Below, piece by piece: positions 1 to 6,653 of a DNA stretch of 11,390 nt. The stretch lies in IMG/VR virus record IMGVR_UViG_3300032167_000073, one strand, 5' to 3'. The notes below the pieces were generated by a model. That model was not told the origin of the DNA, searched no databases, and saw nothing but the letters and a program-made list of their open reading frames with translations. Numbering within the stretch: position 1 is the stretch's first letter; each line of letters opens with the position of its first letter. The translations under genes and the position numbers were made by a program. The stretch is from a virus (taxonomy: Duplodnaviria; Heunggongvirae; Uroviricota; Caudoviricetes).

Positions 1-109
1 GGCATCACTTCCGGCCATCCTCGCAGGCAGGGCAGCAGGGCGGGCGCTGGCCGGGTTGAGCGACAACGGCAGCACTTCCGGCCATCCTCGCAGGCAGGGC
101 AGCAGGGCG
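1..109. repeat. 42-bp direct repeat, two copies (1-42 and 68-109), period 67 bp; may continue left of the window
   Basis: GGCA[T/G]CACTTCCGGCCATCCTCGCAGGCAGGGCAGCAGGGCG twice with one mismatch; 37-bp exact core at 6-42 and 73-109. Confidence 0.9.
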
Positions 110-464: not shown

Positions 465-528
465 AAAAATAAATCAGAAAAAGTATTGACAACGGCGTAA
501 GCTGGAGTTACAATCTAACCGTAGTCAA
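465..528 (+). promoter_or_regulatory. Repeat-promoter copy 2
   Basis: TTGACA 486-491, 17 bp, TACAAT 509-514, CTGGAG and AACCGTAGTCAA boxes. Confidence 0.9.
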
Positions 529-566
529 GAAACACCAACACTTAAAGCTTGAAGGGAGTAAAAACC

Positions 567-875
567 ATGACTGAACACATCATTACCGTTGGCCTCTTTG
601 ATAAGGATAGCAAGCGTCAGGAGATCGGCACGCTTGACGCATACAAGGTTATCACGAACATCTTTTGCGGCGCTGGCCTGTGCGCTACGATCCTTGAGGC
701 GCAGGGCGTTTACCGCCACGAAAACGGTGAAGTCGTGGTTGAACCGTCGCTGCGTGTTGAGTGCGCAGGCGCTACGCGCGAACAGATCAAGCCGATCATC
801 ATGCAGATTAAGACGGTTCTTAATCAGGAGTCCGTCATGTATAAGATGGTCGAATCCTCTATCGACTTCCTGTAA
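567..875 (+). CDS. Putative SAM lyase (SAMase)-like / DUF3574-like protein, 102 aa
   Basis: AAGGGAG RBS before ATG 567; motifs G47-x-Y49-R, E59-x-S-L-R-V and Q87-E-S-V resemble the GxY...ExT/S...Q[DE]xV pattern I recall for T3-type SAM lyases; no search run. Confidence 0.55.
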   Translation: MTEHIITVGLFDKDSKRQEIGTLDAYKVITNIFCGAGLCATILEAQGVYRHENGEVVVEPSLRVECAGATREQIKPIIMQIKTVLNQESVMYKMVESSIDFL

Positions 876-941
876 TGCAGATGACGCGCCGCCCATACCG
901 GGCGACGTGTAATGCAGCCGACGGCGGTTCAAAGCCCGCGA
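876..941 (+). ncRNA. Twister self-cleaving ribozyme, circularly permuted (P5-type order)
   Basis: P2 TGCA 876-879/913-916; GA 880-881; pseudoknot TGA 882-884/TCA 929-931; P1 885-894/900-909; U910-A911-A912 cleavage strand; pseudoknot GC 917-918/934-935; P4 GCGG 924-927/CCGC 936-939 closing a T-TCA-AA-GC loop. Confidence 0.85.
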
Positions 942-973
942 TCCTGCTAGATTAAGAAATGGGAGTGTATCAT

Positions 974-1432
974 ATGGCAAGCATTACTAGGGCGCAGCTT
1001 AACAAGTACAATGAAGCGTGCAAGAACGGCTTCATGTTCGATCTGCAGTATTTTCTGACGCATGGCGAAAAGCAGGTGATCCGCATCGTCAAGCAGGCAG
1101 ACGGTTCCCAGCTTCACGCGGTTATCTGGTTCATGCCTGAATACGAGCAGCGCAAAAATGCGTATGGTCAGACGTTTCAGGTGCCTACTGGCCGTCATCA
1201 GCCTGAAGTGCATATTTCCCGTTACGTCGAAAGCCGCATCAATAGCAATATGCTTGTGTCGCATGGCATGGGCAAGTCTATTGTGCTCAATGATCTTGAA
1301 TTGGGCAAGCCCTGCGCCCGTCGCACGTTCTCCACGCTGCAAAAGCTGACGGCGGCGATTAATGACGCATGGATTGAAACGCAGTGGGCAGAAGCGCCCG
1401 CGCGATCCTATGGCGGCGTGATTGTCGGTTGA
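974..1432 (+). CDS. Hypothetical protein, 152 aa
   Basis: GGGAG RBS 961-965 favours ATG 974. Confidence 0.85.
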   Translation: MASITRAQLNKYNEACKNGFMFDLQYFLTHGEKQVIRIVKQADGSQLHAVIWFMPEYEQRKNAYGQTFQVPTGRHQPEVHISRYVESRINSNMLVSHGMGKSIVLNDLELGKPCARRTFSTLQKLTAAINDAWIETQWAEAPARSYGGVIVG

Positions 1433-1446
1433 AGGGAGGGCGCAGC

Positions 1447-1617
1447 ATGAAGGGCAATTGCAAGCGGTACGTCGTCGAATTTGCAGGCGAATTCCTGAAG
1501 AATCCGGCGCTGTCAGATGGCTATAAGGTTGAGATCCGGCGCATTCTTGAGCACTGCAAGCGCGGGCGAATTTCATCCGTTGAAGCCGTCGAATGTATCT
1601 TGAAGCTTGTCAAGTAA
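1447..1617 (+). CDS. Hypothetical protein, 56 aa
   Basis: GGGAGG RBS before ATG 1447. Confidence 0.8.
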   Translation: MKGNCKRYVVEFAGEFLKNPALSDGYKVEIRRILEHCKRGRISSVEAVECILKLVK

Positions 1618-1633
1618 GAGGAGGTAACATATT

Positions 1634-1717
1634 ATGCCTGATATCCTTTGGTTGTTGGCGATCCCGGTTTCCTGCGTGGCGACTTTCAAGCTTCTTGCAT
1701 GGGAACAGACGTTTTAA
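1634..1717 (+). CDS. Small hydrophobic peptide, 27 aa (MPDILWLLAIPVSCVATFKLLAWEQTF)
   Basis: GGAGGT RBS at 1620-1625; fills the gap up to repeat copy 3; below the ORF-track cutoff. Confidence 0.65.
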   Translation: MPDILWLLAIPVSCVATFKLLAWEQTF

Positions 1718-1724
1718 AAATCTG

Positions 1725-1788
1725 AAAAATAATGCAGAAAAACTATTGACAAGGCGGCGGGCTGGAGTTATACTCTAACCATAGTCAA
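1725..1788 (+). promoter_or_regulatory. Repeat-promoter copy 3
   Basis: TTGACA 1746-1751, 17 bp, TATACT 1769-1774, CTGGAG and AACCATAGTCAA boxes. Confidence 0.9.
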
Positions 1789-1822
1789 GGACATCAAACA
1801 GTGAAGCAAGGGAGGCAATCAA

Positions 1823-1996
1823 ATGTATACGCTACACATTATCCCGGTTAGCACCAAAAACCCGCCGCTTTTCGTCAGGCACCATGAACCGACAATTGCC
1901 CATGCAGCAGCCGCCGATTATGCAAAGTTTAGCGACGTGCTGGCCGTAGAGGTTACAAACAACGTAACCGGGGAAATTGAAGCGATTTACGAATAA
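1823..1996 (+). CDS. Hypothetical protein, 57 aa (MYTLHIIP...TGEIEAIYE)
   Basis: GGGAGG RBS, ATG 1823, TAA 1994-1996; not in the ORF track. Confidence 0.8.
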   Translation: MYTLHIIPVSTKNPPLFVRHHEPTIAHAAAADYAKFSDVLAVEVTNNVTGEIEAIYE

Positions 1997-1997
1997 A

Positions 1998-2053
1998 TCC
2001 CGTCTGATGATGGCTGGATGGCCTCCAGCCGAAACGCTGCAAGCGTCACGGGA
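1998..2053 (+). ncRNA. Hammerhead ribozyme, type I
   Basis: Stem I TCCCGT 1998-2003/ACGGGA 2048-2053; CTGATGA 2004-2010; extra T 2011; stem II GGCTGGA 2012-2018/TCCAGCC 2024-2030; GAAA 2031-2034; stem III ACGC 2034-2037/GCGT 2043-2046; GTC cleavage triplet 2045-2047. Confidence 0.9.
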
Positions 2054-2226
2054 AGCCGCCGACGGCACGTAACCGTCGTTAAACCGGGCAGGCAGGCCGA
2101 ACGGCCTGAAGATGAAAGTCGGGCAACCGGGCGGAAAAGAGACAGGTTGAAGCGGGCAAGGAAGCTGCACCCCATGTGATCCGCTGCACGGGCGCGGCAA
2201 ATTCAAAGAAAAGGGGATAACGGGAA

Positions 2227-2538
2227 ATGACTAGAGGGTATCAGGAACGCCGCTATAACATGCAGGCGCGTGAATTTGAGAAGGTTGCCGACTGGACGTT
2301 TACCGTGTATCCCGGCGATAACGAACACTTAACCGTCAGCCGGAACGGAGTCGTGAAAACCGTTCGCGTGGAGGATTGCAGCGAATTCGTTTTCAGTTTG
2401 AAGCGCACAAAAGTGCTTGCGCGTGGCGGCGCGTCCGGCCTCTTTGAATTCATCGACAAAGAGCTGTTCGGGGATGAATTCGCGTGCTTTGCGTGGAAAG
2501 TCCTGCGCCATTGCTTCTTTGATTGCAAGGCGGCTTGA
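2227..2538 (+). CDS. Hypothetical protein, up to 103 aa
   Basis: Co-oriented ORF; start is 2227 or 2260. Confidence 0.7.
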   Translation: MTRGYQERRYNMQAREFEKVADWTFTVYPGDNEHLTVSRNGVVKTVRVEDCSEFVFSLKRTKVLARGGASGLFEFIDKELFGDEFACFAWKVLRHCFFDCKAA

Positions 2539-2587
2539 CGCAGGCGGAACGATGGCCGGAACGATTAACAGAACGGAGGGCGGAACC

Positions 2588-2827
2588 ATGAAGAAGCGGA
2601 AAAGCTATGTTGGTATGAACTTTAAAAAGTGGTGCCAACTTGATCCCGACGATGAACGGAAAATCAATTACACCCTGACAGGCTATTGGGCGTGGGTGTA
2701 CCATGAGGAACATTTTACAAGCGATGACTATTGCGATCCGATGACGATGTTTCGTGTTCAGAATTCGACGATAATGGAAATCAGGCTGGAAAACGACGAA
2801 TGGTTTGTAACCCTGCGTTATAATTAA
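2588..2827 (+). CDS. Hypothetical protein, 79 aa
   Basis: GGAGGG RBS before ATG 2588; ends just before repeat copy 4. Confidence 0.8.
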   Translation: MKKRKSYVGMNFKKWCQLDPDDERKINYTLTGYWAWVYHEEHFTSDDYCDPMTMFRVQNSTIMEIRLENDEWFVTLRYN

Positions 2828-5845: not shown

Positions 5846-6133
5846 ATGGAAATCACAAAGATGCTGACGATCTCCAATGGACACGTGTCCGATGAAACGT
5901 GGCAGAAGCTTGCAAGGGAGGCAAGCGCGGAGTTTGGCGTTGTCCTGCCCATGGCCGTCTACGCAAAGGGCGAGTATGGTTTTCTCATCTCCTGCGCGTG
6001 CATGTATAATGAGGAAAACGAGGGTATCCCCGACGATCTGCTTATGTGCATGAAGCTGGCGCATGAGTGCGGCTGTATGTGGCTTTGTCTGGACGATGAC
6101 GGCGAGCTGCTTTCCTGCCTGCCGCGATATTGA
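5846..6133 (+). CDS. Hypothetical protein, 95 aa, possibly DUF5983-like
   Basis: GGGAGG RBS; IS-x-x-H, GEYGFLI and WLCLDDDG...LP segments resemble a mobile-element family from memory; family call tentative. Confidence 0.75.
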   Translation: MEITKMLTISNGHVSDETWQKLAREASAEFGVVLPMAVYAKGEYGFLISCACMYNEENEGIPDDLLMCMKLAHECGCMWLCLDDDGELLSCLPRY

Positions 6134-6157
6134 CAAACGCTCAAAACCCGCTATAAT
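6130..6157 (+). promoter_or_regulatory. Stand-alone sigma70/sigmaA-type promoter, not a copy of the repeat
   Basis: TTGACA 6130-6135, 16 bp, TATAAT 6152-6157; no CTGGAG or TAGTCA box; overlaps the upstream stop codon. Confidence 0.7.
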
Positions 6158-6452: not shown

Positions 6453-6623
6453 ATGACACCAAAGGAATTCTATGAGCAGATGCAGCAGATTCGTGCAGAC
6501 GAGGATCTTTCAAATGACGATAAGCATGAGCGCATGGACGCGCTGATGTGCAAGTTGCTGGCCGAAATGGGATATACAGACGGCATTGAAGTTTTTAGAA
6601 GTACAGAAAAATGGTATTGGTGA
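6453..6623 (+). CDS. Hypothetical protein, 56 aa
   Basis: ATG 6453 in the long open frame; RBS weak; ends at the terminator. Confidence 0.75.
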   Translation: MTPKEFYEQMQQIRADEDLSNDDKHERMDALMCKLLAEMGYTDGIEVFRSTEKWYW

Positions 6624-6653
6624 TCCGGCCTGAAATGGTCGGATTTTTTCTTT
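6623..6653 (+). terminator. Intrinsic terminator
   Basis: ATCCGGCC/GGTCGGAT 8-bp stem (one G-U), 6-nt loop, then TTTTTCTTT. Confidence 0.8.

Follow-up and report, generated by a model that had tools for sequence, protein, structure and literature searches.

Twister and hammerhead ribozymes predicted behind upstream stop codons in neighbouring early modules of a gut phage

The window, i.e., the whole stretch of 11,390 nt analysed here (IMG/VR record IMGVR_UViG_3300032167_000073), originates from a large gut phage and contains an early region with eight promoter-repeat modules on the + strand. Eight copies of the promoter pattern TATTGAC-N11-CTGGAGYTAYAMT have been located on this strand by pattern match in the window, against 0 expected. 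Ribozymes are found in only two of the eight modules (modules 2 and 3, Table 1), and in both of them a promoter copy (486-514 and 1746-1774, respectively) stands ahead of the first gene. No promoter-like site that could serve the downstream genes of module 2 was detected in 939-1607, and no terminator was found between modules 2 and 5. The 57-aa product of the first gene of module 3 belongs to no Pfam or PHROG family and the homologues found for it are near-identical ones only; likewise, Pfam/PHROG scans gave no family matches for the downstream genes of this module. Cultured phage records contain no match to the window, either as DNA or as protein. Relatives were obtained from IMG/VR by alignment-based search, single window proteins having given nothing as queries; among them, L007 carries homologues of the window genes 974-1432 and 1634-1717. 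The promoter repeat also occurs in two further IMG/VR contigs (L001-L006), and no ribozyme was found in the 53 kb of them that were examined.

Table 1. Features of modules 2 and 3, in window coordinates.
Feature	Position	Strand	Basis or details
Promoter repeat, module 2	465..540	+	Pattern match; 11/12 sigma-70 consensus positions; -35 TTGACA 486-491, -10 TACAAT 509-514, conserved leader TAGTCAAG
Putative SAM lyase gene, 102 aa, Svi3-3-like, first of module 2	567..875	+	Profile match to 6ZM9
Type-P5 twister ribozyme (predicted)	876..939	+	Rfam RF02684
Downstream genes, module 2 (974-1432, 1447-1617, 1634-1717)	974..1717	+	ORFs with ribosome-binding sites
Promoter repeat, module 3	1725..1800	+	-35 at 1746-1751, -10 TATACT at 1769-1774
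57-aa gene, first of module 3	1823..1996	+	ORF with ribosome-binding site; function unassigned
Type I hammerhead ribozyme (predicted), extra U between A9 and G10.1	1998..2053	+	Descriptor match and minimum-energy fold
Conserved non-coding structured leader travelling with the hammerhead	2054..2226	+	Comparison with L007
Downstream genes, module 3 (2227-2538, 2588-2827)	2227..2827	+	ORFs with ribosome-binding sites

Profile and residue comparisons assign the protein encoded by the opening gene of module 2 to the SAM lyases of the Svi3-3/T3 SAMase family. The window protein alone scores 20.9 bits against Pfam PF23780, under the gathering cutoff of 28; the same model is matched at E < 0.01 by 22 of the 24 family members, and a profile built from the 24 homologues retrieves the phage SAM lyase Svi3-3 (PDB 6ZM9) with an E value of 5e-08 over residues 6-97, i.e., nearly full length. 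In addition, the residues that are invariant in the family (G47, Y49, E59, Q87, and E88) correspond to G56, Y58, E69, Q104, and E105 of Svi3-3, which have been described as its strictly conserved SAM-binding residues (PMC7877911). The profile match and the invariant residues thus back the putative SAM lyase of the sequence-only reading. An anti-restriction enzyme of this kind is needed within minutes of DNA entry, and it offers a readable phenotype. In a bovine-gut metatranscriptome (one dataset), coverage of the window is confined to this gene and consists of two read-length contigs of 151 nt (577-727 and 720-870), which as contigs cannot show ends or transcription.

Directly after the stop codon of the SAM lyase gene, which ends at 875, begins a candidate type-P5 twister ribozyme (gap of 0 nt). 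It matches RF02684 over model positions 1-58 of 58 with 41.5 bits (E 5.4e-06), a margin of only 3.9 bits over the gathering cutoff of 37.6; the twister of L007 reaches 48.4 bits, and that of L010, in which the linker before P4 is absent, falls under the cutoff. The element shares P1, P2, P4, the U/AA step, and the GC and AAGC core with the twisters of this type (RF02684; Roth et al., 2014, per PMC6765202). Compared with the common type P5, the window copy, whose cleavage is a prediction, has a junction after P2 that is one base shorter (GAUGA vs the usual GAGUGA) and a UCA of the P4 loop that is displaced by one base relative to the common phage consensus, as would result from a shift in the pseudoknot register; by inspection, pseudoknots might form between UGA (884-886) and this UCA, and between GC (915-916) and the GC of AAGC. 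The helices P1, P2, and P4 are kept by covariation among four homologues, with 95.7% of cells paired and four compensatory pairs, against 23-47% in slid controls. From the conserved U/AA step, the cut is predicted between U910 and A911, which would leave the P1 hairpin at the end of the 5' product and AAUGCAGCC at the start of the 3' product, followed by the P4 hairpin.

The second candidate ribozyme, a hammerhead, begins one base past the stop codon of the 57-aa gene. Its parts follow in the order stem I (UCCCGU/ACGGGA), CUGAUGA, the extra U, a stem II of 7 bp, GAAA, a stem III of 4-5 bp, and GUC, and the minimum-energy fold of 1998-2053 is exactly the three-way junction with stem I open, as in type I. 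The predicted cut lies between C2047 and A2048, so that the 5' product would retain stems II and III. The descriptor used has a low background (two matches in 20 shuffles of 166 kb, i.e., about 0.007 expected for the window). On the other hand, the Rfam hammerhead models gave no match at 1998-2053 even at E ≤ 10, either in the whole window or in a 281-nt search, which is attributed to model coverage since the canonical-core hammerhead of L008 was likewise missed. The Rfam scan advocated by the sequence-only reading has therefore recovered one of the two ribozymes, the twister, the hammerhead being found by descriptor; at E ≤ 10 the whole-window scan revealed no further ones. Both had nevertheless been correctly located in that reading: RF02684 places the twister, expected 1-2 nt past the stop codon with a cut at 910/911, at 876, and descriptor, fold, and covariation agree on a hammerhead behind the stop codon in module 3 with a cut at 2047/2048.

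The CUGAUGA, GAAA, and GUC core, the closed stems II and III, and the open stem I are those of bacterial and phage type I hammerheads, and the departure from the canonical 7-nt core consists of the extra U. Sequence comparison assigns the window hammerhead to a widespread phage subfamily, in which 12 distinct phage members present 12 different stem III helices, all of them helical, and the same extra U is fixed. In the L007 homologue, two double changes have occurred in stem II and one in stem III. Insertion of one nucleotide between A9 and G10.1 has been reported before, as in the plus-strand hammerhead of CChMVd (PMC3705267, PMC4209133); it is tolerated there, with U as the most favourable base, and changing the extra A to U at the insertion position accelerated trans-cleavage 3-4 fold (PMC3705267). 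In contrast to this case, the extra U of the window is no isolated peculiarity but is fixed throughout a phage lineage. The hammerhead is followed by a leader of 173 nt whose window and L007 copies have 85% column identity, with flanking genes that differ on both sides. The comparison also revealed one compensatory pair and a 20-nt hairpin insertion, which is no multiple of three. An ORF across the leader (2018-2179) was ruled out, given that the indels relative to L007 would shift the reading frame and that the conservation is not codon-like. No Rfam family matches the leader at E ≤ 10, a viral scan for its motif gave none, and a metagenome scan gave only chance matches, which fall within coding sequences of phages that are unrelated (L025, L026).

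The position behind the SAM lyase stop codon has been compared, with a tree, among relatives that carry orthologous SAM lyase genes. A twister occupies this slot in five lineages (the window, L007, L010, L144, and the distant L186, in which the order promoter, SAM lyase, twister is kept at 43% protein identity), and a hammerhead does so in L008 and L145. In L009 and L023, the slot contains a structured element of 135 nt that is unclassified: two narrow searches gave no Rfam family at E ≤ 10, no tRNA-like gene was recognised, and IMG/VR yielded no more copies. Finally, L022, L012, L014, L016, and L019 have an intrinsic terminator at this place, with a new promoter behind it. Where the slot holds a terminator the next gene has a promoter of its own, and where it holds a ribozyme the next gene has none; the ribosome-binding site and start of the gene after the twister lie at 18-41 nt in the window clade and at 33 nt in L186. 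Two ribozyme classes and ordinary terminators thus replace each other at one spot, and the earlier argument for selection, drawn from the use of one position by two unrelated classes, is much strengthened by these exchanges.

The placement relative to the stop codon is not restricted to this locus. Among the type P5 twisters of phages, 18 of 36 start 0-2 nt past a stop codon, compared with 1.4% for random positions; within their own intergenic spacers in unrelated phages, the same holds for 17 of 28 (2.12 expected). Similarly, nine of 11 type I and II hammerheads lie within 3 nt of a stop codon, and 11 of the 12 members of the window subfamily adjoin the upstream one. All ribozymes are oriented like the genes on either side of them, which run in one direction, and the hammerhead core of L007 even includes the stop codon. 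The sequence-only reading had instead emphasised a position after the first gene of a module, a rule that several observations do not support. The homologous hammerhead of L007 sits after the fourth gene of its module, with no promoter upstream, and the SAM lyase gene of L008 is the second of its own unit. In unrelated viral contigs, the genes upstream of twisters are the first of their unit in 27 of 49 cases, as compared with 959 of 1851 (OR 1.14, p 0.67), and are thus not enriched for such genes. What holds generally is that the ribozymes are fused to the stop codon ahead of them, and not that they follow a first gene. No quantification of this fusion was found in the literature searched, outside which lie Roth 2014 and Weinberg 2015. 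With regard to the genes upstream of the other stop-fused twisters, almost all are without an assigned PHROG or Pfam family.

What has been observed directly is how the two modules are built, that this layout is conserved, and that relatives exchange one element for another. As for their role, the ribozymes probably constitute self-acting punctuation of host-transcribed early operons that cuts multi-gene transcripts. The host RNA polymerase would initiate at the repeated sigma-70-type promoters and transcribe through several genes, and each ribozyme would fold and cleave during its own transcription. The upstream message (the mRNA of the SAM lyase or of the 57-aa gene) would then end a few dozen bases past its stop codon with a 2',3'-cyclic phosphate and either one hairpin (P1 of the twister) or two (stems II and III of the hammerhead), which should slow 3' exonucleases, and the downstream genes would carry on as a separate RNA with a 5'-OH, an end that may raise or lower its stability according to the RNases of the host. 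The topologies of both ribozymes agree with these ends, which had been proposed previously. In this manner, the upstream gene would act as a single-gene unit with a terminator-like end, later genes sharing its promoter.

Going by the slot swaps and the placement at the stop codon, the function that may have been selected is the formation of a 3' end on the upstream message. The hammerhead moves with the downstream leader and not with the upstream gene, and at least partly a role for the downstream product is thereby suggested. The selected function could in fact be the downstream RNA itself, from which the ribozyme would trim the upstream part to provide a constant 5' end and fold whichever promoter is used, a natural counterpart of the synthetic ribozyme insulators. 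This explanation, which is considered doubtful, fits the conservation of hammerhead and leader as a unit among differing neighbours in the window and L007, the hammerhead of L008, which precedes a non-coding stretch of about 380 nt conserved in L009 and L023, and the short distance between the end of P5 twisters and the next start codon (median 34.5 nt). However, within spacers the ribozymes hug the upstream stop codon and not the downstream start, the same slot is filled by terminators in relatives, and in L221, L227, L230, and L232, all four from the hammerhead subfamily, the cut is followed, as seen by eye, by what looks like a hairpin and then a T-run, with no near start codon. A second alternative is that the ribozyme works as an attenuator: RNase J, if the host has it, would rapidly degrade the RNA that starts with the 5'-OH, as with glmS (PMC6765202), and the expression of the later genes would be lowered as by a leaky terminator. 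Terminators at the orthologous position and strong GGAGG-type ribosome-binding sites, suggestive of a Firmicute-like host, are compatible with it. Yet attenuation seems quite unlikely, since the downstream genes of module 2 have no other promoter and would be all but shut off by a strong loss of RNA stability, and the P4 hairpin near the start of the twister 3' product may block a 5' exonuclease. A reading of the motifs as dead remnants, or as selfish elements carried along by recombining cassettes, without benefit to the phage, is very unlikely: the early region is a mosaic whose repeated promoters could drive cassette shuffling, and the L010 twister is shortened and under the Rfam cutoff, but compensatory changes preserve all helices, stop-codon placement is exact in many unrelated phages, the classes are exchanged at one slot, and the order of promoter, SAM lyase, and twister persists down to the identity of L186. 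Finally, both cuts would lie on one possible read-through transcript with no terminator between them, but the excision of a 1137-nt RNA (911-2047), then circularised or rejoined by an RtcB-type host ligase or phage RNA repair enzymes, is extremely improbable, as the promoter 1746-1774 is inside the segment, L010, L144, and L186 have a lone ribozyme, and spliced or circular products of clustered hammerheads have been sought and none found (Perreault et al., PMC3088659).

With punctuation of the early operons as the preferred reading, fusion to the stop codon might be functional and not merely compact, the terminating ribosome covering and unwinding the first strand of the ribozyme (P2 of the twister, stem I of the hammerhead), although this is regarded as unlikely. 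The helix concerned would be the only one holding the cut downstream RNA; therefore, the first round of translation would free the downstream fragment, make the cut irreversible, and tie the separation of the mRNAs to translation. If this were true, the 135-nt element of L009 and L023 would represent a further self-cleaving or processing class. The single-base placement at stop codons across unrelated phages and the slot swaps lend themselves to simple experiments with swaps, mutations, and altered spacing.

The early polycistronic RNA of phages T7 and T3 is processed by RNase III, and the first early gene encodes Ocr in T7 and the SAMase in T3. By analogy, the window system works like this processing but is no member of it. 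In both, an early operon of the host polymerase opens with an anti-restriction gene, behind which the transcript is cut or would be cut to leave a 3' hairpin. Unlike the RNase III system, no host enzyme would be needed here, the element is no long double-stranded RNase III hairpin, and cleavage would be expected to leave a cyclic phosphate and a 5'-OH, where RNase III leaves a 3'-OH and a 5'-phosphate. Among bacterial self-cleaving ribozymes, glmS is the only one with an understood role, its 5'-OH product deciding the fate of the mRNA (PMC6765202); in contrast to glmS, which is located in a 5' UTR and is metabolite-dependent, the window ribozymes lie between cistrons, and nothing about them hints at a ligand. 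The roles of bacterial and phage twisters and hammerheads have been called largely elusive (PMC6765202). The locus leaves this question unanswered, but represents an unusually clean natural experiment, in which one gene end is served by four devices in close relatives.

The idea that early transcripts are cut by ribozymes is not new and dates from 2011 (PMC3088659; PMC6765202). In that year, it was proposed that long phage transcripts are divided into mRNAs the length of a gene (PMC3088659), and the cutting of polycistronic RNA into pieces of differing stability has also been proposed (PMC6765202). Clustered hammerheads of prophages, which cleave in vitro and in E. coli, flank short gene blocks or single genes, including the anti-restriction gene ardA (PMC3088659). 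As in the blocks of Perreault 2011, the window contains two ribozymes between co-directional + strand genes within a few kb, and small phage genes are flanked, among them an anti-restriction gene (ardA in Perreault 2011, the SAM lyase gene in the window, and an anti-restriction PHROG in L140). Unlike these blocks, a type P5 twister and a type I hammerhead serve neighbouring promoter-driven modules in the window, and relatives swap class for class, and ribozyme for terminator, at one orthologous slot.

The two self-cleaving ribozymes that the sequence-only reading had placed behind the first genes of modules 2 and 3 have both been borne out. The first is a complete type-P5 twister (41.5 bits in Rfam; cutoff, 37.6), whose first base directly adjoins the TAA of the upstream gene and whose cut is predicted from the conserved U/AA step; among the close-clade twisters (n = 4) pairing is found in 95.7% of cells, with 4 compensatory pairs. 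The second, beginning one base past the TAA of the 57-aa gene, has the layout of a type I hammerhead, in order stem I, CUGAUGA, an additional U, 7-bp stem II, GAAA, stem III, and GUC, and this junction is also its minimum-energy fold. An extra base at the same position is tolerated in the CChMVd hammerhead, U being the most active variant (PMC3705267). Rfam reports no hammerhead here, even at E ≤ 10, and also misses the canonical one of the viral contig L008, so a separate descriptor was written (background: 2 matches in 20 shuffles of 166 kb). With the hammerhead models of Rfam release 15 both sequences stayed unreported at any threshold tried, and phage type I hammerheads like these are undercounted by Rfam-only scans. 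The same subfamily has been detected in 12 viral contigs by a pattern scan of IMG/VR; its 12 distinct sequences, including those of the window and of the related contig L007, all carry the extra U, and their stems III have 12 different sequences, every one helical.

The first gene of module 2 is predicted to encode a SAM lyase. Its protein scores under the Pfam cutoff, and a profile of 24 homologues matches the solved phage SAM lyase Svi3-3 (6ZM9; E 5e-08), the invariant G47, Y49, E59, Q87, and E88 of the family corresponding to the conserved SAM binders G56, Y58, E69, Q104, and E105 of Svi3-3 (PMC7877911). The only metatranscriptome with the sequence yielded two read-length contigs, both inside this gene. 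Contigs with homologues were gathered, and the element directly behind the stop codon (the slot) was read in each (see table). All four element kinds occur within a single group of the protein tree, that of the seven closest genes, and the outgroups compared carry terminators. This distribution suggests that the ending of the SAM lyase message right behind the stop codon is the constant, and that the device alone varies. The ~135-nt element of L009 and L023 (partial in L024), with three compensatory pairs between the two sequences, has neither an Rfam match at E ≤ 10 nor a tRNA-like gene in it, and is a candidate processing signal or new kind of ribozyme. In L014, L016, L018, and L019, dense short-repeat arrays occupy the stretch from the SAM lyase terminator to the next promoter; they may serve as protein-binding sites, as an origin or as a decoy.

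Coordinates of features in the window and in related viral contigs (percentages with slot elements, protein identity of the SAM lyase homologue)
Sequence	Position	Strand	Feature	Remarks
Window	1-109		42-nt G+C-rich direct repeat, two copies	67 nt apart, 98% identical; immediately upstream of first promoter; poorly covered by the DNA sequencing runs compared
Window	567-875		putative SAM lyase gene	first of module 2
Window	876-939		type-P5 twister	predicted cut 910/911
Window	1823-1996		57-aa gene	first of module 3
Window	1998-2053		type I hammerhead	predicted cut 2047/2048, after GUC
Window	2054-2226		173-nt leader	non-coding, predicted structured, conserved with L007
Window	6130-6157		perfect-consensus promoter	outside the repeat family
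Window	6622-6645	+	intrinsic terminator	sole clear + strand terminator
L007			slot: twister P5	78%; 48.4 bits
L144			slot: twister P5	77%; read from sequence
L010			slot: shortened twister	83%; score under cutoff
L186			slot: twister P5	43%; promoter first, then SAM lyase, twister, and next gene, as in the window
L008	4310-4362		slot: type I hammerhead	76%; loop II of a kind common in phage hammerheads
L145			slot: type I hammerhead	75%; loop II as in L008
L009	4310-4450		slot: ~135-nt structured element	71%
L023	1843-1990		slot: ~135-nt structured element	68%
L022			slot: intrinsic terminator	70%
L012, L014, L016, L019			slot: intrinsic terminator	46-55%; then repeats and fresh promoter
L014	4330-5170		dense array	~25 copies of GGTATATTATACG-like short repeat
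L008; L009; L023	4363-4720; 4445-4828; 1985-2361		common ~380-nt non-coding stretch	from ribozyme slot to next gene; without called gene
L008; L009	1-1337; 1-1457	-	926-aa protein	Pfam PF05183 (RdRP family) match
L140	30-686		anti-restriction protein gene	PHROG match phrog_7245, E 7e-34
L140	691		P5 twister	one base past stop of the phrog_7245 gene

Fusion of the ribozyme to the upstream stop codon is a general feature. In IMG/VR, a core-pattern scan detected twisters at 117 loci (L027-L143). Of 36 non-redundant type-P5 copies, none of the window's clade, 18 start 0-2 nt and 23 start 0-5 nt past the stop of an upstream frame with ≥50 open codons (random positions, 1.4% and 2.9%). Conditioned on their own intergenic spacer, 17/28 lie at 0-2 nt vs. 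2.12 expected, and the median distance from twister end to next start codon is 34.5 nt. Of 11 credible type I and II hammerheads found in these loci, 9 lie ≤3 nt from a stop, as do 11/12 of the window's subfamily; in L007 the stop codon is inside the CUGAUGA core. In two P5 copies the upstream frame ends at a UGA inside the ribozyme. Type P1 twisters of these loci (a heuristic class that may include some P3) start mostly 5-30 nt past the stop. The 5.4-kb contig L049 holds six twister cores ~420-590 nt apart (mostly ~550), roughly one per small gene.

The further claim that the ribozymes cut modules after their first gene does not hold generally. In L007 the homologous hammerhead lies behind the fourth gene of its module, without a promoter upstream, and in L008 the SAM lyase gene is the second of its unit. 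Among unrelated contigs, with crude gene calls, genes upstream of twisters were first of their unit in 27/49 cases vs. 959/1851 for other genes (OR 1.14, p 0.67).

The window consists of early-region DNA from a large, uncultivated phage. The sequencing runs containing it are animal gut samples, and DNA and protein comparison found no similar phage among cultured phage records. Its genes are nearly all small and on the + strand, and eight copies of the promoter repeat TATTGAC-N11-CTGGAGYTAYAMT head gene groups (chance expectation, 0). Since only one clear + strand terminator is present, transcripts of modules 2 to 5 can continue into the next module; this terminator and the perfect-consensus promoter bracket two small genes. 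From this anatomy, which is conserved and in relatives is replaced by terminators, a mechanism can be proposed. Co-transcriptional self-cleavage would split off the upstream cistron, whose message would then carry a terminal cyclic phosphate and close with the P1 hairpin (twister) or with stems II and III (hammerhead), and the downstream genes would continue on a 5'-OH RNA with no need for their own promoter. The fate of the downstream RNA would depend on the RNases of the host; in Bacillus, the 5'-OH of the glmS product marks it for RNase J1 (PMC6765202). Alternatively, the ribozyme may act as an insulator that gives the downstream leader a defined 5' end, a reading compatible with upstream separation and with real support in the hammerhead case. 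There, the leader shows 85% identity to its L007 counterpart, the flanking genes differ, and the hammerhead travels with it; the leader has no Rfam match, and scans returned no further copy.

Ribozymes between phage genes have precedents. In prophages, clustered hammerheads have been described that flank individual genes, the anti-restriction gene ardA among them; they cleave in vitro and in E. coli, and were proposed to process long phage transcripts (Perreault et al., 2011; PMC3088659), and a 2019 review repeated the idea for twisters, calling the biology elusive (PMC6765202). The ribozyme-punctuated phage gene block as such is therefore already known. The locus adds the series of twister, hammerhead, unclassified element, and terminator in one orthologous slot, a quantified stop-codon fusion, and a ribozyme link to SAM lyase. 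This link parallels phage T3, in which the first early gene encodes SAMase and is followed by an RNase III site. The PF05183 protein of L008 and L009 is probably a single-subunit, YonO/crAss-type RNA polymerase encoded by the phage; its gene lies two genes and >1 kb away from the early promoters, on the opposite strand. Finally, the phrog_7245 gene of L140 joins ardA and SAM lyase as the third anti-restriction gene that a ribozyme serves.
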